This document shows positions 346 through 20,739 of a stretch of DNA of 64,000 bases, one piece after another. A program made the translations under genes and the position numbers. The DNA lies in the NCBI GenBank assembly GCA_045863235.1, contig BTUM01000003.1, positions 128,001-192,000 of the forward strand, written 5' to 3'. Positions within the stretch are counted from its first letter, which is position 1; each line of letters opens with the position of its first letter. This DNA comes from Candidatus Xenobia bacterium. GTDB lineage: Bacteria; Vulcanimicrobiota; Xenobia; Xenobiales; QWHO01. The notes under the pieces were generated by a model that was given only the letters and a program-made list of their open reading frames with translations, ran no database searches and was not told the DNA's origin.

Positions 346-3141
346 ATGACGAGCGCGCTGCTCATCGGCCGCAGTTCCGATCTGGAAGTGCTGGCCGGCC
401 TCTGCCGCTCCGACCGGGGGGTCGGTTTGTTGTTGGTGGGCGCGAGCGAGATCGGCCGCAGCTCGGTCATGGGCGAGCTGGCCGAGCAACTGCGCTCGAG
501 CAGGAAAGTGCTCGAGCTCGGTCCCAACACCTGCGTGGGCGAGTTGCTCGAGGCTCTGGCCGTCAAGGCCGAGCACCCCACCCGGCCGGCCTCGCTGGCC
601 GGGGCTCTCCGGCGAGGTCTGGCCGGCAGCCAATGCGTCTTGCTGGTGGACGACTTCGAGCGGCTCGACTCGCTAACCCGGCGCACCCTCGAGCAACTGG
701 CCCGGCTCACGCCGCCGGCCGGGTCGAGCTGGATCATCTCCGTCACCCCGCCCGCGGCGGTGCGCTTTCCCCGTTGCGCGCGTCAGACTTTGCCGCCTCT
801 CTCCAACAGCGACATGTCCACCCTCATTCGCATGGAGCTCAAGGGCGAGCCCGGTGAAAGCCTGGAGGAGTGGCTGGTCGCCCGATCAGGCGGCTCTCCT
901 CGCCGCCTGCGGCTGCTGGCCCTGATCCTGGCCGTGACCGGGCTCCTCAAGAAGCGAGGGGGACAGTTGGAGGCCTCCCGCTTGCCCACCGACCCCATGG
1001 CCGACGTGCTGTCCGCCCTCGAGTCGCTGGACGAGGATGCTCGTCTGCTGCTCGAGCTGGGCTGTCTGGCGGACGAGCCCTTTTCCTTCGAGGTCCTGGT
1101 CCACGCCAGCGGCCTGAGCCGCGATCGCGCCGAGCGCGCGGCCAGGCTGCTCAGCGACGGCGGCTTGCTGGAAGGCTTCCGCATCGGGCCCACCGAGCTG
1201 CGCAAGCTGGTGTCCACCGGCCTGCCGGACCGGACCCGACGCCGTCATCACGGACGCCTGGCCGATGCCCTGGAGGCGCTTGCAGGCACCGCGGCCGAGC
1301 GCGGAAGGCAGCTGGCCCGAGCCGGCAAGAGCTCGGATGCCGCCTGGTTGCTGATGGAGGCGGGGCGGCAGGCTCACGACCGGGGGCTCCTGGAGGAGGC
1401 CCTGCAGCTGTGGGAGACGGCGGCGAGCTGCCTGCTGCTTGGCGACCCCATCCCGGGGGTGGCCCGGGCCGACACCCTGCTTGCGCTCGGCCGCGCCGAG
1501 GAAGCCGAACGAGCTCTGGCCCGCCTGAACGATTCGCCCGAGGTGCGCCGGGCCCAGATCGACGCCCTCATCGCCAGGGAAGAATGGGACGAGGCCGGGC
1601 GGCTCTGCGAGCAAGCCCTGGAGACCACCCCAACGAAGGGCGAGCTCGAGCTCCGGCTGGCCCGGGTGCTGACCCACCGAGGCGACCGCGAGGGGGCCAT
1701 CGCGGCGCTGGAGCGCGCCCTGCCCGAGGTGGGTCCGGAGGCTCGCCTGTCGCTGGGGCGCCTCTCGCTGGCCACAGGAGACGTGCGTCGGCTGCGCGCC
1801 AGCGTCCAACCCCTGCTCGAACATCCCGAGCTGCGCTTCGAGGCGCTGCTGCTGCTGGCCGAAGGTGAGCAGATGGGCGGGCGGGGCTCGGCCGGGCGTG
1901 AGCGCTTGCAGGAGGCGGCCGCGCTGGCGAACCAGGAGAAGGTGCCCGAGCGCGAGGCCAGGGTGCATCTCTTGCAGGCCGGCTCCCTGCGCGACGAGGG
2001 GGACCTCGTCTGGGCAGCCGAAGCCTGCGAGCAAGCCGTGACCCTGCTGCGGCCGGCGGGAGAGAGCCTGGTCCTGACCGAGGCCCTGGAGCAGCTCCTG
2101 CGTTTGCGGTTGGAGCAAAACAAGCCTTCCGAGGCCGAGACCGTTCTGCGCGAGCTGGTGGCCGTCAGCGACGTCCTGGACGAATCGGGGCCCCGGGCCC
2201 GGGCGCGCCTGCGGCTGGGGCGCCTTCAGATCGAAAACGGACGAGCTGCCGAGGCGGTGGACTCATTGAGCCAGGCGGCTGAGCTGGCCCGGGGAAGCGA
2301 GCAGGCCGAGATCCTGACTGTGCTGGCGACCGCCAAACGCCTCCAGGGAAACAGCCAGGAGGCCATTGCGGTGGCCGAGCAGGCCGTTACCCGGGCCCGC
2401 GAGGCGGCCTCCAGCGAGCTGCTGGCCGCCTCGCTGGTGACTGTGGGAGAGCTCTCGGTGGACGCCCAGCAGTGGAGCCGGGCCCGGGAAGCCCTCGAGG
2501 AAGCCCGAGGACTGCTCCCCGAGGACCCCGGGTTGTCGAAGGCTCTGGCACGCCTGCACGAGCAGGGGGCTCTGCACCAGGTGCCCGGGCTGAGCGCGGA
2601 GGAGGCCCGGCGGATCCGACGCACGACCCGCACGCGCGCGCAACTTCCCGTCAATCCTCGCAGGATTCTCCCCTGGCTGGGGGCTGCGGTGGCCCTGGCT
2701 CTCTTCATGCTCTGGCCGCGCCCGGGCATCGTGCAGGTGGAGTCCCACCCGCCCGGCGCAGCGGTGGTGGTAGACGGAAAGCGCCACCAGGCGCCCTGCA
2801 CGCTCAAGCTCTCGCCCGGCAGCCACGAAGTCAAGGTGGCCCTGCAGGGATACAAGTCCCATGTCGAGCGGGTGGAACTGAGCGCTGGTCAGAGCTTCAA
2901 GCTGGTGGCCCGGCTCGAGAGCGCCTCGGGCGCGGTCCGTTTCTCCACCCAACCCAAAGGGGCCAGGATCTACCTCGAGGGGCGCCTCAAGGGGGTCTCT
3001 CCGTTGGAGCTCAAGGGCCTGCCACCCAGGCGCTTCCAGGTCCTGGTGGTCAAACCTGGTTATCTCGATTACCTGGGAGCGGTGGACGTGGTCGCCGGCA
3101 AGACCCGCAACCTGTCGGTCAACCTGAAACAAGCGCGATGA
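346..3141 (+). CDS. STAND/AAA-like NTPase-TPR membrane protein with C-terminal PEGA domains
   Basis: Degenerate Walker A GASEIGRS, Walker B LLVDDFE, a SGGSP motif, a long TPR-like region, a TM helix ILPWLGAAVALALFMLW, and two PEGA repeats (VESHPPGAAVVVDG, FSTQPKGARIYLEG). Confidence 0.75.
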   Translation: MTSALLIGRSSDLEVLAGLCRSDRGVGLLLVGASEIGRSSVMGELAEQLRSSRKVLELGPNTCVGELLEALAVKAEHPTRPASLAGALRRGLAGSQCVLLVDDFERLDSLTRRTLEQLARLTPPAGSSWIISVTPPAAVRFPRCARQTLPPLSNSDMSTLIRMELKGEPGESLEEWLVARSGGSPRRLRLLALILAVTGLLKKRGGQLEASRLPTDPMADVLSALESLDEDARLLLELGCLADEPFSFEVLVHASGLSRDRAERAARLLSDGGLLEGFRIGPTELRKLVSTGLPDRTRRRHHGRLADALEALAGTAAERGRQLARAGKSSDAAWLLMEAGRQAHDRGLLEEALQLWETAASCLLLGDPIPGVARADTLLALGRAEEAERALARLNDSPEVRRAQIDALIAREEWDEAGRLCEQALETTPTKGELELRLARVLTHRGDREGAIAALERALPEVGPEARLSLGRLSLATGDVRRLRASVQPLLEHPELRFEALLLLAEGEQMGGRGSAGRERLQEAAALANQEKVPEREARVHLLQAGSLRDEGDLVWAAEACEQAVTLLRPAGESLVLTEALEQLLRLRLEQNKPSEAETVLRELVAVSDVLDESGPRARARLRLGRLQIENGRAAEAVDSLSQAAELARGSEQAEILTVLATAKRLQGNSQEAIAVAEQAVTRAREAASSELLAASLVTVGELSVDAQQWSRAREALEEARGLLPEDPGLSKALARLHEQGALHQVPGLSAEEARRIRRTTRTRAQLPVNPRRILPWLGAAVALALFMLWPRPGIVQVESHPPGAAVVVDGKRHQAPCTLKLSPGSHEVKVALQGYKSHVERVELSAGQSFKLVARLESASGAVRFSTQPKGARIYLEGRLKGVSPLELKGLPPRRFQVLVVKPGYLDYLGAVDVVAGKTRNLSVNLKQAR

Positions 3142-3188: not shown

Positions 3189-4151
3189 ATGAAGCTCCGC
3201 GCTCTGCTCGTGATCGTGCTCGCCCTGGCGGTGGCCCGGGCGGCACCGCCCTACGACCCGCTCCGGCTCCCGGCCGGCGAGACGACCACCCTCGAGCTCG
3301 AAGTGGCCGGAGAGCGCGAGCTGCCCCTGTTGATCTACCTGCCTTTCGATCGCTCACCGGCCCCGGTGGTGCTGTTCAGTCACGGTCTGGGAGGCTCGCG
3401 ATATGGCAGCAGCTTCCTGGGCAAGCACTGGTCCGGACGAGGCTACGTGGTGGTCTATCTCCAGCATCCCGGCAGCGATGACTCGGTCTGGAAGGAGCAG
3501 CAGAGGGGTCGACGTCTGGCGGCCATGAAGAGCGCAGCCAGCGCCGAGAACCTGCGCCTGCGGATCGCGGACGTGCCGCGCGTGCTCGATCAGCTCACCG
3601 CCTGGAGCCAGGAGCCCGGCCACCCACTATCCGGTCGGCTGGACCTGACTCGGATCGGCATGTCCGGCCACTCCTTTGGAGCCCTCACCACCCAGGCCGT
3701 GGGCGGACAGAGCTTTCCCCTGCTGGGAGCGAGGGGGACGGACAGCCGCATCCGGGCCGCCCTGCCGATGAGCCCGAGCGCCCCCCGAGCCGGCGATGTC
3801 CAGAAGGCCTTCGGACAGGTCGCGATCCCCTGGATGCTGATGACCGGAACCGAGGACACCTCGCGCATCGTCAACCTCACCGTCGAAGAGCGGCTGGCCG
3901 TCTACCCTGCCCTGCCGCCGGGCGGGAAGTACGAGCTGGTGCTGAACCGGGCGAAGCACTCAGCCTTCACCAACCGTCCTCTGCCAGGCGACGGCGGAGG
4001 GCGCAATCCCAACCACCACCGCTCCATTCTGGCCCTGAGCACGGCCTTCTGGGACGCCTACCTCAAGGAAGATCCAGCCGCTCGCGAGTGGCTGGACGGG
4101 GCGGGTCCGCGGGATGTGCTCGATCCCGAGGACCGCTGGCAGCACAAGTAA
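3189..4151 (+). CDS. Secreted alpha/beta hydrolase (dienelactone hydrolase / PAF-acetylhydrolase-like)
   Basis: Signal peptide MKLRALLVIVLALAVARA, FSHGLGG, nucleophile motif GHSFG, downstream Asp (GTED) and His (AKHSAF). Alternative ATG at 3138. Confidence 0.85.
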   Translation: MKLRALLVIVLALAVARAAPPYDPLRLPAGETTTLELEVAGERELPLLIYLPFDRSPAPVVLFSHGLGGSRYGSSFLGKHWSGRGYVVVYLQHPGSDDSVWKEQQRGRRLAAMKSAASAENLRLRIADVPRVLDQLTAWSQEPGHPLSGRLDLTRIGMSGHSFGALTTQAVGGQSFPLLGARGTDSRIRAALPMSPSAPRAGDVQKAFGQVAIPWMLMTGTEDTSRIVNLTVEERLAVYPALPPGGKYELVLNRAKHSAFTNRPLPGDGGGRNPNHHRSILALSTAFWDAYLKEDPAAREWLDGAGPRDVLDPEDRWQHK

Positions 4152-4182
4152 TGCCCTTCCAAATTCTTTGAGGGTCAGCCCC

Positions 4183-4188
4183 TACCAT
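4183..4188 (+). promoter_or_regulatory. -10 element, leaderless start
   Basis: TACCAT lies 6 nt before ATG 4195, with no SD. Confidence 0.5.
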
Positions 4189-4194
4189 TCCCCC

Positions 4195-5964
4195 ATGGTG
4201 GTGCACTCCTCGACCTGTGCCCTCTTCGTCCGGCCCACCCGGGCGACGGCGCCGCCTGAGCGCGATCCTGTGAGTGAAGCCCTGGCTGAGGTGGATGCCT
4301 CGGCGCGCAACGAGAAGCTCCTCAAACTGTGCTCTGAAGCCCGCACCAACCCTGATCTCTCGGCATGCCTGGGACGCCGTCAAGCCGAGCTGTGGAGCCT
4401 TCCCCTCAGCAGCGACTACGCTTGCATCGACCTGGTGGAACGTCTGGCCCCGCACTGTCCTCCTCCCGAGAGCCTGGACTGGCTCTTCCAGAAATATGGT
4501 CAACGGTTAGCGGTGGAGGGCCCGAGTATCGGAGCAGCCCGCCGCTCCCTGGAGCAAATCCTGACCAATCGCCCCGACTTCGTGGACGAAGCCGCTGCCC
4601 GGCTCCTCGAGCCCTCGCCGGAAACAGGCTTCACGCCCGCCCAGCTGGTCTGTCTGAAGGACCTGGTCAGCGATCGCGGCTGGCGACCGGACGTCGAGCA
4701 GAAGGGCAGGCTACTGGAGCGCCTGGACACCGTCGACCTTCTGGGCAGAGAAGGCCAGGATCTTCTCAAGGTGCTGGTGGAGCTGAAAAAGGCTTGCCCT
4801 GAAGAGGTCCCGCCCGGTCTGGGTCGCGAGCTGCTCGAGAGGCTTCTGGCTGAGCCCGAACCGCCTCTTTACACCGTGGCAGGCGGCCCAAATGTGGGCT
4901 TCCTGTCTCAGCCCATCTACCAGATGGCCTTCCCGGACGAGAAGCTGGAGGGCGAGTTGCTGTCGCAGGTGGGTCAGGGAAGCCAGAATGCTCTGCTCGT
5001 GCTGGCGGGCTCGATGACTCTGACCGGAGGAGCCGCACGACTGGGCCGCCAGCTCGAGGCCGAGTTCGGACGAGCCCACGAGCCCGCCTGGATGGACCAG
5101 GTCTTGCTGCACGTGTTGGACCATTGGCTCGAGCAGCCCTGTGCTACCGCAGACGACGCTCTCGAGCCCCACCTGGCGCTGGGCAGGCGCTATGAGGCGC
5201 TGGCTGCCCGCGAGGAGCCCCTCTCGCCCCGCTGCAAACCCGCCCCGGTGAGCGTGGCGCCCGAGTGGCTGGCCGGGATGTCCGACTCGATGGACACGGT
5301 GGAGTCGCAGGCCCGGCTGGTGGTCGCCTTCCGGGCCGCCGGGCAAGATCCGGCACTGGCCGGAGCGCTGCTCGGCGAGCTGACCGAGTGGCTCAACCAG
5401 AATCGGTCTCCTGCCTGGACGGAAGCAGCCGCGGCCTTCCGCGGCCTCAAGGACCTCCAGGTGCGAGAGCAACTGCGCCAGGCGACCGACCTGCGCGAGC
5501 TGCTGACCGCCTTCAGCCCGGACGCCACCTGGATGAATGCGGCCCAGGAGCGCTACCCGGCCGAATTGGCCCATCTCAAGCCCCTGCTCAAGGGATTGTC
5601 CCAAGAAGAGCAAGTTGCTCTCGCCCACTCTCTGGCCCACCGCAAGGAGCTGGAAGGCGACCTCGGATGCCTGGCCAGCCTGGCCAATCTGCCAGCCTCC
5701 GAGCGCCCGGAGGCCATCGCGCAGGTCCTGCGCGCACCCGCCTTCTTCACGCGGCTCGACCAGATCGCTCCTCTGCGCGTCAGCTTGCCGGCCCACCAGG
5801 AGCTGTGCCGCCGGATCGAAAGCGGGATGGAGCCCGAGGTCGCCTATCAGCAGGTGGCCGCTCCCCTGCTGCTGGACTGCGTGGCAGGCGACTGCTGCAA
5901 GGCGGTGGGAACGGTGGACGGCTACCTGGTGGTCGGGGGCTCGCGGCTGCGCAACCGCTGCTGA
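4195..5964 (+). CDS. Hypothetical alpha-helical protein with C-terminal VGGSRLRNR module
   Basis: Long ORF with GC-ending codons. The C-terminus resembles that of 10089..11825. Confidence 0.75.
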   Translation: MVVHSSTCALFVRPTRATAPPERDPVSEALAEVDASARNEKLLKLCSEARTNPDLSACLGRRQAELWSLPLSSDYACIDLVERLAPHCPPPESLDWLFQKYGQRLAVEGPSIGAARRSLEQILTNRPDFVDEAAARLLEPSPETGFTPAQLVCLKDLVSDRGWRPDVEQKGRLLERLDTVDLLGREGQDLLKVLVELKKACPEEVPPGLGRELLERLLAEPEPPLYTVAGGPNVGFLSQPIYQMAFPDEKLEGELLSQVGQGSQNALLVLAGSMTLTGGAARLGRQLEAEFGRAHEPAWMDQVLLHVLDHWLEQPCATADDALEPHLALGRRYEALAAREEPLSPRCKPAPVSVAPEWLAGMSDSMDTVESQARLVVAFRAAGQDPALAGALLGELTEWLNQNRSPAWTEAAAAFRGLKDLQVREQLRQATDLRELLTAFSPDATWMNAAQERYPAELAHLKPLLKGLSQEEQVALAHSLAHRKELEGDLGCLASLANLPASERPEAIAQVLRAPAFFTRLDQIAPLRVSLPAHQELCRRIESGMEPEVAYQQVAAPLLLDCVAGDCCKAVGTVDGYLVVGGSRLRNRC

Positions 5965-6007
5965 ACGCTTTTCGACGCCAGACAGGGAACCTGACCCCCC
6001 GAGGGAG

Positions 6008-6013
6008 TATAAT
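6008..6013 (+). promoter_or_regulatory. -10 element of katG
   Basis: Perfect TATAAT about 100 nt upstream of the katG ATG. Confidence 0.55.
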
Positions 6014-6106
6014 AGGCCCTCACGACGCTCTCAAGTAGGCATCCCCAGCTGAGTCTGGAGTGCCTGCCAGTCGTGGGGGGCACAAAATCTGACTTAGGGA
6101 AGTTGA

Positions 6107-8296
<2,190 letters not shown>

Positions 8297-8325
8297 AGGC
8301 CCAGCCCCACCAGAGGTTGGGCGTC

Positions 8326-8370
8326 GCGCAGCCGGAAAACCCGTGTCAAGGGGGTTCCGGCTGCGCTTTC
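8326..8370 (+). terminator. Intrinsic terminator after katG
   Basis: Stem GCGCAGCCGGAA / TTCCGGCTGCGC followed by TTTC. Confidence 0.65.
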
Positions 8371-8521
8371 ATCTGGCAGAGTCAGCAAAGCACGCTTCGA
8401 GCGGGCCGGCGAGGTCTTGCTGGGGAAATGCGGGTGGTGAGCGTTTCCTCTCTCCGCGCGCCGTAGCTTGCCGCGCAGAACTTGTTCTGAGCTGCCCGCC
8501 CGAGGGCATTTTAGCAGCCGA

Positions 8522-10048
8522 TCAGGAGCGACGGCGCGCGTCCAGGAAGTGCCATTCGGAAGACTCACCAAACTGGAGCCGGTCCCCATGGCGCAGGCGC
8601 GTCTCGGACTCGACCACGATCCCGTTGACCAGAGTCAGGCCGCCGCCCAGTTTGCGCACGCAGTAGTTTCCCTCCGAGCGCACCACCAGGCAATGGCGCC
8701 GAGACACGGTCTCGTCGGCAAGCACCAGGTCGCAGTCAGGAGCCCGCCCGACCAGAGTCTGAGAGCGGTCGAGAGAAAACCGCTGGTCCCCGCCCGCGAG
8801 CTCGAGCCAGTAGCGGCTGGCAGCCGGAAGCGGGGTGGGCGCAGGAGGAGTAGCGGCTGAACGCGAGCGGCGTTCGCAAACTTCGAACCGCATCAGGGTC
8901 TGTCCCACCTCCACCAGCTCCCCGCCCTCCAGAGCCAGCTTGCCCACGACGGGCAGTCCGTTGACCAGCACCCCACCGCTCAGCAACAAACGGCCCTCCT
9001 GTCCTTCGAGCCAGAAGCAACGGCAGGGGATCGAGCTGTCATCCAGATCGATGTCGTTGTCGTGAGGTCCCGGTCCCCCTACTGCCAGTGGGCGACCGGC
9101 CGAGAGCAGGGCCGCGAACAAGGGCACGGTCTTGCCCGCCTCGGGCCCCTCCAGGAAGTGCAGAAGGTAGGCGGGGCGAACCTGGGCCGAGCGGGTTCGA
9201 GACTGGTCCAGCCGGCTGGGGCGAAGATCCCGAAGAGCAAGCCGCGGATTGCCCAGGAGCCAGAAGGCCAGATCGGTGCGCCAGGAATCGCGAAACTTTT
9301 CCCGAGAACCGCCCACGGCCTCACCCAGCTCGGCGCCCTCGCGCATCTGGGCCAGGATGTCGCTCACGAAAGCCGCGCAGCACTCCCAGGGCACCTCCCA
9401 CTGGGAAGCGAGGATGGCATCGACGCCGAGATTGGACAGCCCCCGGGTCAATGCTTCCGAGCCGGGCCCGTGCAAGACCACCAGCCGGGGCACGTAGTGT
9501 CTTCCCACCGAGCGAAAGGGCTCAAAGCTGCCCGAGGCCAGGACCACGGCATACTCCTCTGAGGAGAGCACGGAGCGGAACGCGGCGGCCGGGTGCCTGG
9601 AAACCTGAAAGTGGGCGTCCAGGCCGGCCGGAGCCGGGTCGGCGCTATCGGCCACCAGGGCCGCCAGGGCGGCCCCCTCGACTCGCGGCACGACCTCTTC
9701 CCCGGCCCGCCGCACCCTTCGCGCCGTCGAGCGACGGTAAGCCAGGGGAACCCCCGCGATGCGGGCCAGCTCCCAGGGCGTCTCTCCAGCCAGCCAGCAG
9801 TTCACCGGCTCCTTACATAGCACCTGAGTGAGATTGGCGGGAAAGCAGTTCCCCAGCGAGTCGCCCAGTCGGTCCAGAGCCTCGGAGAATCCGCCGGCAG
9901 CCTGCTGAAGGGCGACCAGCGACTCCTTCTGGCTGCGCATCTCGACCGGCAGACGCCGGGCTTCAAAATGGCTCTCCTGGCCGTCGCGAAGGAGGCGCCA
10001 ACGAATCGAATCGGGCAGGGGCTCCTCGAAGAACAGGTCGAGGCTCAT
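8522..10048 (-). CDS. Degenerate CHAT (caspase-like) domain plus two FHA domains
   Basis: CHAT-like PWELA, AILASQWEV and FWLLGNP. C-terminal FHA VGRAPDCDLVLADETVSRRHC...TLVNG, preceded by a more degenerate FHA. Confidence 0.75.
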   Translation of the reverse strand: MSLDLFFEEPLPDSIRWRLLRDGQESHFEARRLPVEMRSQKESLVALQQAAGGFSEALDRLGDSLGNCFPANLTQVLCKEPVNCWLAGETPWELARIAGVPLAYRRSTARRVRRAGEEVVPRVEGAALAALVADSADPAPAGLDAHFQVSRHPAAAFRSVLSSEEYAVVLASGSFEPFRSVGRHYVPRLVVLHGPGSEALTRGLSNLGVDAILASQWEVPWECCAAFVSDILAQMREGAELGEAVGGSREKFRDSWRTDLAFWLLGNPRLALRDLRPSRLDQSRTRSAQVRPAYLLHFLEGPEAGKTVPLFAALLSAGRPLAVGGPGPHDNDIDLDDSSIPCRCFWLEGQEGRLLLSGGVLVNGLPVVGKLALEGGELVEVGQTLMRFEVCERRSRSAATPPAPTPLPAASRYWLELAGGDQRFSLDRSQTLVGRAPDCDLVLADETVSRRHCLVVRSEGNYCVRKLGGGLTLVNGIVVESETRLRHGDRLQFGESSEWHFLDARRRS

Positions 10049-10088
10049 CGCGAGCAACTTTGCTGGAGTCTCCGGGGAACCCTCCAGG

Positions 10089-11825
10089 TCAGCCCTTGCG
10101 CTTGAGGCGCACCGAGCCCACCTGCACTCCCCGGGGGGTCAGCTCCACGCGCTGGGCCGGGTCACTCCTGCCGGGCACCAGGTAGTCGAAGGTGGCCCGC
10201 TGGCGGGCCTGATCGGCCGGCACGCCCTGCTCGATCAGACGCTCCACTTCGGTGCAGGCGCGCAGGATGGCCTCATGTTCGGCCTCCCCGCCCAGGCGGG
10301 CGCTGAACTCGCGGAACTGGTCGCCGCCATAATAGGCGGCGTATCGCCTGGCAGGGTCGGCGGAGTAGTGCGCGGCCCAATTGTCATCGGGCAAGCGCTG
10401 GCTCCACAGCTCGTGCGCATCAGGCACCTGACAGGCCAGCAGGCGCTCCACCAGCGGTCGGGCCTGCTCGACAGGCGTGCCAGCGAGCTGCTCTTTCAGC
10501 TGGGCTATCTCCTGGCGGCGAGCCTCGGAGGTGAGAGCCTGGACGGGCCCGCTCAAGGCGTGCGCCAGGTAAGGCTGGAGGGCCTGCGTGACGCCGGTCG
10601 AGCCCAGCATGTGAGCAAGCCAGAGAGCCTCCTGGGCCGAGCGAGGCAGGTCGGAGAGGTCGGCCTTGCTGGTCCGGGCCGCCTGGACGAACTCCTCGAG
10701 CAGCTCGCTCGCCTGCTGAGCCTTCTCCTCGGGGGTGAGCTGGGGGCCCAGACGCTCGAGCACGGGACGGGTCTGGAACTCCAGGCTACTGGGGATGACC
10801 CGGTGCACCACGCTGCGCAGATACTCTCGGGCCGCCTGGATCTTCCCGGTCACGTCTGGAGCGTCGCCCATGCGGCGCATCTGGGCGTTCTGGTGCTCGC
10901 TGCGGAACGTGTCCACCAGGCTGTCCAGGGCGGCGTTGTCGTGGCGCCTCTCCAGCTCTTGCATGGCGATGGGGCGAATCAGCTCGCGGTGGCGGCTCAC
11001 CGAGCCCAGCGCCACCAGGGCCCGCTGGTCGGCCGGCGAGAGTTTCTGGATGTCGCCCTGGTAGTTGCTCTGGAGCCTTTCAGCCAGACTTTGCGAGAAC
11101 TCCTGATCGAGCAGGGCGGCATAAGCCTGGCTGGTCACCCCCACGGCCATCACGTCCCCGGCGTACAGTCGGCGCAACTCGGGCTCGAGCAGAAGGCGGT
11201 CGAACAGGTTCTGGCGCAGGCCGTCCAGCCCGTTGGGGATCCGCCCCAGCGCCTCCAGGCCCTGCCAGAACTCGGGCCCCGGCTTGCCGGGCTGAAGCAG
11301 CCGGGCGGCCAGCCAGGGACGATGTCGGGGGGCGGCGGTCTGGCTGAGCACGCGCCAGTCCTCCAGGCTCTGATTGTGGTTCCGCGACAGGATGCAATCG
11401 GCCACGCGCTCGCCCCACTCGGGATGCTGCTCGAGCTGCTCGAGCACCACCCGGGCGCCGCCCTCGTTGGGAAGCACCTCCAGGACCAGCAACTCGGGGC
11501 TGACCGTTTCGGGAAAGCGCTCCAGCAGGGAGCGGTAGAACTCCGCCTGGCCCTCGCGCGCTCCGTGACGGCTGGTGGTGCTCAACAGCGCCTCTTTGTG
11601 AGGGGCGAAGTGCCGGCTCACCTGGGGCCTCTGGCTGGCCAGGATGGCACTCAGCGCCTGAAAGGCCCGGCGGTCACCCGCCTGGTTGGTCAACTCGAAG
11701 GCCACCTGATCGGCCAGGCCCTGGTCAGTCCAGGTCAGCCGGTCAAACGTCTCAGCCGCCTGCTCGCGCTTGAGCGAGCGGCACAGAAACCTGGCCCGAG
11801 GACTGCTGAGCTGCACGGAGTCCAT
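10089..11825 (-). CDS. Hypothetical alpha-helical protein with C-terminal VGSVRLKRK module
   Basis: Long ORF, probable start MDSVQLSS. The C-terminus resembles that of 4195..5964. Confidence 0.75.
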   Translation of the reverse strand: MDSVQLSSPRARFLCRSLKREQAAETFDRLTWTDQGLADQVAFELTNQAGDRRAFQALSAILASQRPQVSRHFAPHKEALLSTTSRHGAREGQAEFYRSLLERFPETVSPELLVLEVLPNEGGARVVLEQLEQHPEWGERVADCILSRNHNQSLEDWRVLSQTAAPRHRPWLAARLLQPGKPGPEFWQGLEALGRIPNGLDGLRQNLFDRLLLEPELRRLYAGDVMAVGVTSQAYAALLDQEFSQSLAERLQSNYQGDIQKLSPADQRALVALGSVSRHRELIRPIAMQELERRHDNAALDSLVDTFRSEHQNAQMRRMGDAPDVTGKIQAAREYLRSVVHRVIPSSLEFQTRPVLERLGPQLTPEEKAQQASELLEEFVQAARTSKADLSDLPRSAQEALWLAHMLGSTGVTQALQPYLAHALSGPVQALTSEARRQEIAQLKEQLAGTPVEQARPLVERLLACQVPDAHELWSQRLPDDNWAAHYSADPARRYAAYYGGDQFREFSARLGGEAEHEAILRACTEVERLIEQGVPADQARQRATFDYLVPGRSDPAQRVELTPRGVQVGSVRLKRKG

Positions 11826-11975
11826 AGCTTCCCGCAGCGTACTCGGACGCGATGAAAGGGGGTTGAAAGGCTCTCCGGGACACGTCGGGTGCACCTGGGC
11901 ACACCGAGCACCAGTTCTGCCCACGCGGGATGCAGGGATTGCCGGCACAAGGGCACCTCACTCGGGCCCCAGACG

Positions 11976-18096: not shown

Positions 18097-18707
18097 GACG
18101 CTGGCTGGCACTTGCTCTCCTGCTGACGCTGCCGGTCGCGGCCCAAAGCGAGCTTCCCCCCGGCTACAAGGTCATGCGCCAGTTCGGCAAGCCGGCCCGC
18201 TGGCGCCGAGAGTTGCTCCCCATCCGCCTCTTCTCGAGCGCTCAATTGCGCCTGGTGGATCACTGCCTCGCCCAGTGGAACCAGGCCGGACAGGGCCAGC
18301 TCTATGCGCGTTCCTCGGCCGAGGAGGCGGACGTGCGCCTCGACTGGAGCTCGCCCCGCCTGCCCGCCGGGCGGGCAGGAGCAGTGTGGTGGAACCCGGT
18401 GATGGGCCACCTGCTCATTGAGGGCATGGCCGTGGACGGCGCCTGGAACGTGTCGGAGGGAGTGCGGGCCCGGGTGCTCTTGCAGGAGCTGGGCCACTGC
18501 CTGGGCCTGAGCGATTCGACCGACCCCGGCGACGTGATGTACACGGTGGTGGTCAACCGGCGCCGCCGGCCCCTCGCCCTGGACGCGGCCCGCCTTTCCA
18601 GCCGCGACCGCCAGGCGCTGGGGTGGCTGTATGCCCAGGAGGATTTTGTGCCCATCTGTGTGCACTTGCCCGACCCGGCCGCTCCCACGCCTGTCCCGAT
18701 GCGTTAA
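18093..18707 (+). CDS. Secreted matrixin-like (metzincin) protein with variant zinc motif
   Basis: QELGHCLGLSDS plus Met-turn DVMY. Signal peptide RRWLALALLLTLPVAA. Probable CTG start with GGAGG at 18081-18085. Confidence 0.7.
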   Translation: MRRWLALALLLTLPVAAQSELPPGYKVMRQFGKPARWRRELLPIRLFSSAQLRLVDHCLAQWNQAGQGQLYARSSAEEADVRLDWSSPRLPAGRAGAVWWNPVMGHLLIEGMAVDGAWNVSEGVRARVLLQELGHCLGLSDSTDPGDVMYTVVVNRRRRPLALDAARLSSRDRQALGWLYAQEDFVPICVHLPDPAAPTPVPMR

Positions 18708-18740
18708 CATCACCGCAACGATTCCCCTGGGCCGGCCGCA

Positions 18741-18746
18741 TATAAT
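18741..18746 (+). promoter_or_regulatory. -10 element
   Basis: TATAAT, then SD GGGAGG before ATG 18775. Confidence 0.6.
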
Positions 18747-18774
18747 CCTCCCAGCCACATCAGGGAGGCCTGTC

Positions 18775-20739
18775 ATGAACGTCACCACAGCCAGTCTGGC
18801 CTATACGGGAGCCGAGGCCCGTCGCATCGGAGCCGGCGAAGGAAAGCCGAAGCCGATCGGAGCCGGCGGGAACTCGCCCGCTCCGGCGCAGCCCCAGCAG
18901 CCCGCCCAACCCCCGGCGGGTCAGACGGGCCAGAAGGCCCCGGTCACTCCGCTCGAGCCCGAGAAGGAGTGGACCGTGCTGATGTATATGAACGGAAACA
19001 ACGGCCTCTCCAGCTCGGTCATCAGCAACCTGCGCCAGCTCGAGTATGTGGGCTCGGACAAGAACATCAACTGGGTGGCCCAGGCCTCCCGCTCCAAGGG
19101 CCTGATGGACGGCTGGAAGGGCGACTGGACGGGCGTGCGCCGCTACAACATGGTGCACAACGGCGAGAAGCTCACCCCCTCGGTGATCATCTCCACCGCG
19201 CTGCTGGGCTGGTTGCCCGGCAGCTCCACCAAGATCGAGTCCCCGGTCGTGCAGGACCTGGGCGACAAGAACATGGGCAAGGCCCAGACACTGCAGGAGT
19301 TCCTCGAGTGGGGCATGGCCGCCTACCCGGCCAAGCGCTACATGGTCGTGATGCAGGGCCCCTCCACCGGCCTGTCGGGCATGATGAACGACGAAGTGCA
19401 CGGCTCCAAGATGAAGATCAGCGAAGTGGGCCAGGTGTTCGAGAACGTCAAGGCCTCCACCGGCAAGAAGATCGACGTGGTGGCCATCGACGGCTCCACC
19501 TCGACCACCATGGAGCTGGCCTACGAGCTCAAGGACAGCGTCAACTACATGATCGGCTCGCAGGGTATCCAGGCCGGCGGCGGCATGTTCATCGGCCAGA
19601 TCGCCAACGAGATCAAGAACCTCAACCAGGATCACGTGCAGGATCCGGTCACGATGACCCGCATGTGGTGCTTGATGAACTCGATGGGCTCGGGGATGGC
19701 CAACATCTCCAGCACCATCTCGGCCATCGACCTGACCAAAATGGACGCCGTCAAGCAGAGCTGGGACGAGATGTCCCAGAAGATCCTGGCGGCCAACATC
19801 CCGGGCGAGACGCTCAACCGGATTCTGGACGACACTCAGGACTTCCAGGGCCGCTCCAAAAACGAGGCCTACCAGAACCAGCGCGACGCTTTCGACTTCG
19901 CCAAGCGCATCTCCGAGCACCCCGAGATCACCGATCAGGGCGTGAAGGACGCTGCCAAGGCCACCATGGCCGCCATCGAGGGCGCCCTGGTGGGCGACGC
20001 CGCGGTGGGCAAGTACGTCAAGAACGCCCACGGCCTCTCGGTGTTCGCTCCCACCCACTACGGCTATTTCCGCCCCGACGGCACGCCGGTGGCCAACCGC
20101 TCCATCAAGGACGCCGACTACTCGAGCACCAAGTTCGCTCAGGACACGGTGTGGGACGACGTGCTCACGGCCGGTGCCCAGGACTCGGGCTTCAACAACG
20201 CCCTCAAGAAGCTCGGCTTCTCGGAGAACGCGCTGGACAAGTGGAGCGACTTCTCCGGCAAACACGCCGGTAAGGTCAGCTTCGTGGGCAACATCGCCTC
20301 GATGGCCGGCTGGTTCAATGCCATCAACGCCTGGCGCGGAGCCGAGGCCAGCGGCTTCTTGGGTATTCCGGCCGCCTACACGCCTTACGTCGGTATGGTG
20401 GGCGCCGGTTATGACGCCATCAACGCCGCCAAGAACATCCACTACAGCGCCACCGAGCTGCAAGACACCGACGCCGTGGTGAGCGCCGCCTTCGACGTGG
20501 GTCGGGCCGGCCTCAAAGCCGTCGCCAACCTGGGCTACATCAACCCCGCCCTCAAGGGCGTGGCCGGCACGGCCGGTATGGTGATGTTCTTCTCGCCCTG
20601 GATTCGCGACATCTACGGGGTCTACTCGAACTACAAGCAGATCCGCGACAACATCGAGCTCTCGAACCAGCCGAGCAGCACCAAGTGGGCGATGGCGGCT
20701 TACGGCTACTGGGCCAACAACCACCTGCAGGACAAGTAA
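18775..20739 (+). CDS. Clostripain-family (peptidase C11) homologue lacking the catalytic dyad, with hydrophobic C-terminal helices
   Basis: KEWTVLMYMNGNNGL, NMGKAQTLQEFLEWGMAAYPAKRY, MELAYELKD, TISAIDL, HGLSVFAP. Confidence 0.8.
   Translation: MNVTTASLAYTGAEARRIGAGEGKPKPIGAGGNSPAPAQPQQPAQPPAGQTGQKAPVTPLEPEKEWTVLMYMNGNNGLSSSVISNLRQLEYVGSDKNINWVAQASRSKGLMDGWKGDWTGVRRYNMVHNGEKLTPSVIISTALLGWLPGSSTKIESPVVQDLGDKNMGKAQTLQEFLEWGMAAYPAKRYMVVMQGPSTGLSGMMNDEVHGSKMKISEVGQVFENVKASTGKKIDVVAIDGSTSTTMELAYELKDSVNYMIGSQGIQAGGGMFIGQIANEIKNLNQDHVQDPVTMTRMWCLMNSMGSGMANISSTISAIDLTKMDAVKQSWDEMSQKILAANIPGETLNRILDDTQDFQGRSKNEAYQNQRDAFDFAKRISEHPEITDQGVKDAAKATMAAIEGALVGDAAVGKYVKNAHGLSVFAPTHYGYFRPDGTPVANRSIKDADYSSTKFAQDTVWDDVLTAGAQDSGFNNALKKLGFSENALDKWSDFSGKHAGKVSFVGNIASMAGWFNAINAWRGAEASGFLGIPAAYTPYVGMVGAGYDAINAAKNIHYSATELQDTDAVVSAAFDVGRAGLKAVANLGYINPALKGVAGTAGMVMFFSPWIRDIYGVYSNYKQIRDNIELSNQPSSTKWAMAAYGYWANNHLQDK

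Follow-up and report, generated by a model that had tools for sequence, protein, structure and literature searches.

Two large and otherwise dissimilar proteins encoded in the window (the whole stretch of 64,000 nucleotides that was analysed) end in the same short module, as a sequence-only reading of this DNA had proposed and as both open reading frames and their tails bear out (Table 1). Neither gene product matches a Pfam family (for gene A, above cut-off). Gene A, whose N-terminus is not Sec-like, has orthologues in all four same-genus genomes (4/4), and gene B starts with a D-S-V-Q-L box that is kept in orthologues at 48% identity. BLASTP yields no significant alignment between the two proteins (best E 0.059), jackhmmer and iterated profiles give no link between their bodies, and hhalign aligns the bodies with a probability of 30% (E 5.5e-4) over 176 columns; judged from this last alignment, a very remote relationship between parts of the two bodies may exist.

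A copy of one shared promoter directly precedes each gene, and the starts given in Table 1 are therefore favoured over longer upstream starts at 4114 (gene A) and 11948 (gene B). The promoter-like site of gene A ends 6 nt ahead of the ATG and would yield a leaderless transcript, while 11 nt upstream of that of gene B lies a TTTCAA repeat. Gene B is covered by RNA-labelled runs, but so is the whole stretch, as contigs, and these runs are thus uninformative on its transcription.

Table 1. Genes, promoter-like sites and C-terminal features of the two tag carriers in the window.
Feature	Positions	Strand	Remarks
Promoter-like site, gene A	4167..4188	+	TTTGAG (4167-4172), 10 nt, TACCAT (4183-4188); PWM 10.8 bits
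Gene A	4195..5964	+	589 aa; ATG 4195
Helical stretch and linker before tag, gene A	5788..5901	+	contains the E-x-x-R-x-IE-x-G part of the sequence-only reading
Tag core, gene A	5902..5961	+	20 aa; profile score 25 bits
Gene B	10089..11825	-	578 aa; ATG 11825; tag carrier
Tag core, gene B	10092..10151	-	20 aa; 35 bits; three predicted beta-strands
Two predicted helices and low-confidence linker before tag, gene B	10152..10265	-	structure prediction
Promoter-like site, gene B	11836..11857	-	TTTCAT (11857-11852), 10 nt, TACGCT (11841-11836); PWM 13.1 bits

A portable C-terminal tag

The shared unit is shorter than the roughly 55 residues first proposed: its core comprises about 20 residues (V-x-E-x-x-G/D-x-V-x-V-G-G-V-R-V/L-R/K-R/K-R), and the portable part is limited to the final 20-24 or so. 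The helical pattern E-x-x-R-x-IE-x-G-x5-A-x-Q, which had been counted as part of the module, does not belong to it, being present in only two ORFs genome-wide (A and B), with looser versions limited to 12 of the 193 carriers; likewise, the helical stretch and linker of gene A are not general to carriers. In orthologues of gene B, the tag core is conserved at 67-71%, compared to 43-45% for the body.

The scan that had been suggested recovered many further and mostly terminal members on diverse proteins. With a two-sequence HMM built from the tails of A and B, all eight domains at E<=0.7 are terminal (8/8), and other C-termini rank first. When the profile was grown to convergence without a position filter and sites of at least 20 bits were accepted, 194 sites were found in the genome, 187 of them within 40 aa of the stop, a zone that makes up 28% of positions; reversed ORFs, used as a control, gave 0 sites. 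The carriers are 193 proteins in 89 clusters and account for 4.3% of coding residues, with no gene family enriched beside them. In seven cases the tag is internal, with 180-330 aa between it and the protein end. Global matches stop no more than 16 aa short of the C-terminus in 37/37 cases, and profile matches in distant genomes are terminal in 32/32. The likeness of the A and B tails is far above chance, and the tag is a portable C-terminal unit on about 190 otherwise unrelated proteins. The proposal of a lineage-specific tag on diverse cargo is supported by each of the checks that had been named for it (many further members, 96% terminal, unrelated folds).

Structure prediction of the B tail gives a three-stranded meander, and the tag is predicted to be a sheet that has a single hydrophobic face, is attached by a flexible linker and is not large enough to fold alone. 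No match was found in Pfam, NCBIfam or the PDB: among 124 tails, no NCBIfam family, and no curated T9SS CTD model, had matches to more than one, and a PDB sequence search with the tail returned scattered repeat matches only. With the tail model, Foldseek gave no match at E<=0.001, which does not by itself mean a new fold, VIA gave a best Z of 3.7, on helices, and Atlas no usable match. Neither the tag nor its promoter is described in the freely accessible papers searched. A 112-aa ORF from an unrelated genome reaches 32 bits against the tag profile and is 44% identical to a 105-aa protein of the present genome; the matching region is presumably the beta-meander of ribosomal protein L24, which resembles the tag in its strand-turn-strand-GG-strand pattern but is an internal part of a folded domain. 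This likeness, retrieved by a pattern scan of 596 Gb, may be convergence.

Judged by its relatives, the genome belongs to the Eremiobacterota/Vulcanimicrobiota, and nine genera of this phylum have the tag; single weak matches in three genomes (G120, G178 and G006) were left out of the counts, and weak matches in two others (G004 and G068) are non-terminal. A GTDB pattern scan returned 29 loci, of which 7 are terminal and high-scoring and the other 22 non-terminal or low. Six of the seven are titled Eremiobacterota/Vulcanimicrobiota, and the seventh, titled Burkholderiales, is 83% identical to a protein of the present genome. The net charge of the tag averages +2.2 here (n=187) and -4.7 in genus g6 (n=26), with no overlap and with alike bodies. 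Such genome-wide dialects, as read from the tails, point to one trans-acting reader.

Cargo, leaders and the export locus

Among 124 carriers, Pfam recognises 18 PQQ_2, 2 WD40/PD40, 5 InhA-like MAM and 1 HD protein, and 98 have no family. The cargo is therefore not helical alone, as had been assumed, but includes beta-propellers, MAM proteins and coiled coils, together with a majority of unknowns and almost no recognisable enzymes. By a crude hydrophobicity rule, 0/189 carriers have a Sec-like N-terminus (1530/6093 among other proteins). The N-terminus of many carriers is a leader of Ser, Pro and Ala that contains a D-x-V-x-L-S box, the strict form of which (D-x-V-x-[LI]-S) is found in 15/189 carriers vs. 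34/6093 others, and a classifier that uses the N-terminus only recognises carriers with an AUC of 0.88, compared to 0.72 for an internal control. The box presumably resembles FlgM; however, 0/16 carrier N-termini matched the Pfam FlgM family at E<=5, a comparison of low power for so short a motif, and an FlgM gene was not found in the genome. Judged by eye, propeller homologues with a leader-type start (G060) end in the tag, whereas those with a Sec-like or kinase-type start (G009, G014 and G016) lack it. Since many leader- and promoter-bearing proteins have no tag, the tag is not required for export.

The shared promoter, TTTCAG-N10-TAnnnT, precedes 103/191 carriers (cross-validated) compared to 2.7% of other genes. 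Before tag-less genes, it is found at 66/323 with leader-like N-termini vs. 77/5978 others, and in relatives its strict form precedes only 2/28 carriers. A 26-bit site also lies ahead of a gene for an 81-aa protein in the export locus. This single locus is complete (FlhA, FlhB, FliP/Q/R/O, FliH/I/J, FliF/G/M/N, FliE, FlgB/C and FliK) and encodes a 473-aa protein that shares the carriers' N-terminal box; there is no flagellin in the genome. A flagellar-type export machine is present in 185/201 genomes of the phylum and the tag in far fewer, so that their co-occurrence proves nothing; moreover, the gene content of the locus is alike in tag-positive and tag-negative genomes, with no tag-specific gene. 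As for other systems, VirD4 is absent from this genome and from every tag-positive genome tested (the one positive among 30 is tag-negative), and HlyD (TIGR01843) exceeds the cut-off in 0/30 genomes, with weaker relatives in 26/30 regardless of the tag. GldM, a T9SS motor component, gave no match, and control genomes were equally without one.

No machine was found that co-occurs specifically with the tag, nor was a reader among the candidates examined. Soluble FlhA C-domain paralogues are also present in tag-negative genomes, and a YbjN-fold neighbour, in 12/44 genomes, does not track the tag. FliH column 165 and 222 and FliI column 186, 411 and 426 separated basic-tag genomes from the rest among 15 training genomes and held in four held-out tag-positive genomes where covered, but several tag-negative genomes have them as well (FliH E165 in 4/20), and they are therefore read as an ancestral state rather than as exclusive markers.

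Candidate roles of the tag

With a probability of roughly one half, the carriers are substrates of the flagellum-derived type III system, and the tag is a docking handle for one shared partner that routes cargo there. The carriers would be co-induced with the 81-aa export-locus gene, the N-terminal leader would take them into the export gate, and a chaperone or export component would bind the hydrophobic face of the tag, which could then act as a second, class-specific signal, by analogy with flagellar chaperones that bind late-subunit C-termini. Propellers, MAM/CUB modules, and helical and coiled-coil rods would serve as adhesins or contact effectors. Of the targeting or chaperone-binding role suggested earlier, a route through the type III locus is now indicated; secretion itself and the binder we infer. 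Somewhat more tentatively, the flagellin-less system might sort several hundred substrates by a two-ended code of N-terminal leader and C-terminal beta-meander, a single reader selecting or displaying the roughly 190 adhesin/effector proteins under one activator, and tag and reader having co-evolved into dialects of opposite charge in sister genera.

A less probable but serious alternative is that the leader alone suffices for type III export and that the tag then anchors binding modules on a surface structure of the own cell (filament, tip or envelope). The tag would be last out of the channel, binding folds dominate the cargo, leader-bearing proteins can do without it, internal tags with repeat domains behind them are tolerated, and the dialects fit any single own-cell partner. 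However, no anchor gene tracks the tag, and the 81-aa, 104-aa and 473-aa proteins of the locus show no charge swap between dialects (the 473-aa alignment being unreliable). Recognition of the tag inside a target cell once the carrier has been delivered, for instance by a hijacked protease, a membrane or another hub, is improbable: diverse propeller or helical domains plus one terminal box would suit adaptor-type effectors, and a predatory lifestyle was suggested for a marine family of the phylum (PMC9259500), but a conserved target would not favour a charge that inverts between related genera, and a nuclear signal is rejected, as only 10/203 tails fit K-[KR]-x-[KR].

Slightly less probable still is self-association, with the tag oligomerising carriers as a dimer, trimer or stacked sheet. 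A small amphipathic sheet, as predicted, needs a partner surface, and a helix often precedes the tag; yet the linker ahead of it is flexible, the uniformly acidic g6 tails would repel each other, and per-protein oligomers would give 190 unrelated tails no reason to share a single genome-wide dialect. Least probable is a cytoplasmic regulon in which the tag has no part in export and is a degron or a motif for binding a hub. This would fit the missing Sec peptide and the shared promoter but not the leader bias, the link to the export locus, or the Pfam-matched MAM, CUB and F5/8 modules, which extracellular proteins typically contain.

Prediction of type III substrates is difficult, as their signals lack a consensus. 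The present genome, from an almost uncultured phylum, has around its exapted flagellar exporter a repertoire of some 190 proteins that a sharp tag and a promoter make recognisable. Should the tag prove to be a handle for export or display, it would be a new portable signal and would supply a ready-made list of candidate adhesins and effectors; the two dialects, one basic and one acidic, would allow a built-in swap test to find the reader. The system would also help to explain how a flagellar basal body turns into a secretion system.

Comparison with known secretion signals

T6SS and T7SS substrates can be set aside, with TssC in 0/30 genomes and no WXG100 protein in this one, as can tripartite sorting signals (LPXTG, PEP-CTERM), given that the tag column profile contains no hydrophobic helix and that Sec peptides and NCBIfam matches are missing. 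T9SS cargo carries Sec peptides and a beta-sandwich CTD of 70-80 aa. Like these CTDs, the tag is a single terminal module that recurs on a great many unrelated proteins in one lineage, but it is only about 20 aa long, and the analogy fails because none of the carriers is Sec-like, which rules out a T9SS-like route. The T4SS analogy fares no better: VirD4-coupled signals share the missing Sec peptide and, in this genome, an Arg/Lys-rich end, but there is no VirD4, the tag is predicted to be folded, and the net positive C-terminus found here gives way to an acidic one in g6 and hence does not hold overall.

Injectisome effectors combine an N-terminal signal with a class IA chaperone-binding beta-motif near the N-terminus. 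The carriers resemble them in their Ser/Pro-rich leader and in forming a large, scattered repertoire under one promoter, in a genome in which YbjN-fold proteins occur; in contrast, it is the C-terminus of the carriers that holds the conserved beta element, and the export machine belongs to the flagellar type.

Flagellar type III export offers a close parallel, as FlgE, FlgC and FlgG have a C-terminal export signal and late-subunit C-termini are chaperone-bound (PMC10936197). Those signals are located in helical D0 domains and belong to a small number of structural subunits of rod and hook, whereas the tag is a predicted portable beta-meander on about 190 unrelated, non-flagellar proteins of a genome without flagellin or FlgM. 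What the two have in common is an export apparatus of the flagellar type, cargo with a biased N-terminal leader and no Sec peptide, and a second, C-terminal signal (putative in the case of the tag) that adds to the N-terminal one.

A C-terminal tag on diverse proteins

Genes A and B, which encode two large proteins in the window, are both present and end in the tails that a sequence-only reading had described as shared. A profile iterated from these two tails without position filter, over 88,734 translated stop-to-stop ORFs of the source genome G000 (8.36 Mb, 97.6% complete), yielded 8, 24, 81, 129, 136 and 139 matches in successive rounds, almost all of them terminal. As to the further members called for by that reading's check, a 24-column matrix with a cut-off of ≥20 bits gives 194 sites, of which 187 lie no more than 40 aa from the stop and 7 are internal, as compared to 0 in reversed ORFs; additional, weaker copies can be seen at scores under the cut-off. 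The core of this tag, G/A-V/I-x-E-x-x-G/D-x-V-x-V/I-G-G-V-R-V/L-R/K-R/K-R, follows a Gly/Pro/Ala/Ser linker, while the helical pattern first proposed as part of the shared module is restricted to A and B. AlphaFold2 predicts, over 124 tails, a pair of helices and three strands with a low-confidence linker between them (pLDDT 83, pTM 0.47), and the alternating valines would make one hydrophobic face. The tail had no match in NCBIfam, PDB sequences or fold searches, nor did 124 full-length carriers (proteins bearing the tag) show a Pfam hit on it at E ≤ 1e-5. Among the internal cases, four tags precede a common domain of ~15-aa G-V-A-G-x-Y-x-P repeats without Pfam hit, and one protein has two tags.

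The cargo is indeed diverse: once tails are removed, the 193 carrier ORFs (191 called as genes by a codon model, with a median length of 458 aa and together making up 4.3% of coding residues) split into 89 BLASTP clusters. A Pfam scan covering 124 of the 191 found no family in 98, and otherwise propellers (18 PQQ-type, 2 WD40/PD40), InhA-like MAM domains (5, some also with CUB or F5/8) and one HD domain. Thirteen further proteins of 660-780 aa have the MAM-like domain, often with a leader-like start, and no tag. Carrier genes are dispersed across the genome, and their neighbourhoods have no enriched neighbour family. As for A and B themselves, BLASTP agrees that they are otherwise dissimilar (best E 0.059, insignificant), whereas their orthologue families share a weak profile-profile match (176 columns, probability 30%, E 5.5e-4) that jackhmmer did not confirm; by sequence, they may be remote helical relatives rather than plain paralogues. 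The tag core retains 67-71% identity in B orthologues (body 43-45%) and 57% in A orthologues (body 45%).

Coordinates of features (C, contigs of the source genome; L, loci)
Feature	Location	Strand	Remarks
Gene A	window 4195-5964	+	589 aa; no Pfam family above cut-off
Gene B	window 10089-11825	-	578 aa; no Pfam family above cut-off
CHAT and two FHA/YscD-type domains	window 8522-10057	-	directly after gene B
AAA-TPR-PEGA protein	window 346-3141	+	
Clostripain-family protein	window 18631-20739	+	long low-complexity N-terminus
Internal-tag carriers	C3:76161-78407, C3:123382-125997, C32:68047-70086, C135:163-2358		repeat domain follows
Tag-less MAM-like proteins	C5:163067-165307, C14:118649-120721		examples
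Promoter-bearing tag-less gene	C27:55989-56231		example
Two tandem FliQ-like genes; two FliG-like genes	C27:64799-65385, C27:74321-76130		in the export locus
Soluble FlhA cytoplasmic domains	C80, C3, C1, C106, C107 (L008-L012)		five proteins lacking the membrane part, two of them FliG_N fusions
YbjN family (type III chaperone fold)	C2, C9, C16, C18, C101 (L114-L120)		seven matches
Anaerolinea tag-like stretch	L129:1601-1650		internal, 29 bits, 156 aa from end

An N-terminal leader and a shared promoter

A Sec-like hydrophobic start is found in 0 of 189 carriers vs 1530 of 6093 other genes. Many carriers begin with a Ser/Pro/Ala-rich leader, and from the first 50 residues a classifier tells carriers apart with an AUC of 0.88 (internal control 0.72). 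A D-x-V-x-[LI]-S box occurs in 15/189 carriers vs 34/6093 other genes, and B starts with a box of this type, kept in its orthologues. A similar box is known from FlgM, but Pfam FlgM matched 0 of 16 carrier N-termini, and FlgM is absent from G000. At a threshold capturing half of the carriers, ~375 non-carriers have similar leaders, so that the tag marks a subset.

TTTCAG precedes 82 carriers out of 189, compared with 281 of 6058 other genes, mostly 25-34 nt ahead of the ATG, with TAnnnT 10 nt downstream and a TTCAG repeat ~11 nt upstream; this 11-nt repeat is like that of SARP-type activator sites. In cross-validated scoring anchored on independently called starts, 103 of 191 carriers reach ≥12, a score attained by 2.7% of a sample of 1500 genes. 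Across the genome, an ATG stands 5-8 nt past the -10-like box at 92 of 319 strict sites (12.9 expected), 82 of them in frame and 47 belonging to carriers; this spacing points to likely leaderless transcripts. Among non-carriers, which lie outside the training set, the promoter precedes 66 of 323 genes that have leader-like starts, compared with 77 of the other 5978. TTTCAG-N10-TAnnnT stands before ~180 tag-less genes, many leader-like, whose products are candidates for additional export substrates. Since the strict site occurs at 2 of 28 carriers in relatives, the carrier-promoter link is shown for G000 alone.

Distribution and tail dialects

Named relatives belong to the Ca. Eremiobacterota / Vulcanimicrobiota. 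The first tag profile matched 17 of 201 phylum genomes and FliP 185; the machine is thus near-universal, and its co-occurrence with the tag uninformative. A broader profile found the tag in G000 and 16 other genomes (nine genera, several orders and classes), and none in the searched genomes of genera g2, g3, g4, g5 and g7, of f13 and of others. Tag-positive and tag-negative genomes are interleaved on an FlhA tree, which suggests repeated loss; eight tag-positive genomes lack flagellin, and carriers of distant genomes are mainly propellers. Among 1.84 billion representatives, all 37 matches stop no more than 16 aa short of the C-terminus, several being G000's own or from close kin. A contig titled Burkholderiales (L131), likely mislabelled or mis-binned, codes for a protein that shares 83% identity with a G000 carrier; the Anaerolinea stretch reflects either chance or a rare occurrence beyond the phylum.

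Orthologous carriers of genus g6 end in L-E-x-D-D-D-W-L-x-I-G-D-x-x-L-P-I/V-E, and all 26 inspected hits (4 of them in the training set) lie at most 15 aa from the stop. Tail charge is +2.2 in G000 vs -4.7 in g6, with disjoint ranges and similar bodies, and a mixed profile found no additional terminal acidic tags in G000. Such a joint shift in unrelated proteins is what co-evolution with one reader, a partner binding the tag, would give, and it removes readings that require a basic end. In G088, a propeller carrier (L189) is broken by one stop codon, with an intact acidic tag downstream.

Proposed export route and known signals

Contig C27 holds an export locus with FlgB, FlgC, FliE, FliF, two FliG, FliH, I, J, a lytic transglycosylase, FliK, a FlgG-like gene, FliM, two FliN, FliO, P, Q, R, FlhB and FlhA, followed by a gene of 104 aa, an 81-aa gene present three times and a gene of 473 aa whose product has the leader box at its N-terminus. 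One top promoter site precedes an 81-aa gene, as is also visible in G054; the core export genes lack the site. No flagellin, VirD4, TssC, WXG100 or over-cut-off type I HlyD was found in G000, which has secretin loci resembling type II secretion and type IV pili, systems that take Sec/Tat cargo. FHIPEP matches reach 19 per genome in relatives. One YbjN-family gene comes immediately after a pair of leader-bearing genes that includes a carrier.

Most likely, the carriers' regulon would be switched on together, the leader would let each carrier into the flagellar-type gate, and one producer partner would bind the tag, targeting or ordering the carrier class, by analogy to flagellar substrates, which have C-terminal signals and chaperone sites (PMC10936197). 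The main rival is that the same handle acts after export, anchoring carriers on a filament or the envelope; no reader was found among candidate partners in G000 and relatives.

The tag and regulon are real and apparently undescribed: searches of the literature, supplements aside, turned up no description of tag or promoter. Predation has been suggested for one marine family (PMC9259500), and the passages of PMC11484240 consulted make no mention of secretion. The proposed likeness to T4SS/T9SS signals does not extend to membership, as the tag falls outside T9SS, T4SS, tripartite and FlgE-type signals on the features tested; by analogy, it may represent a further variety of C-terminal targeting signal.
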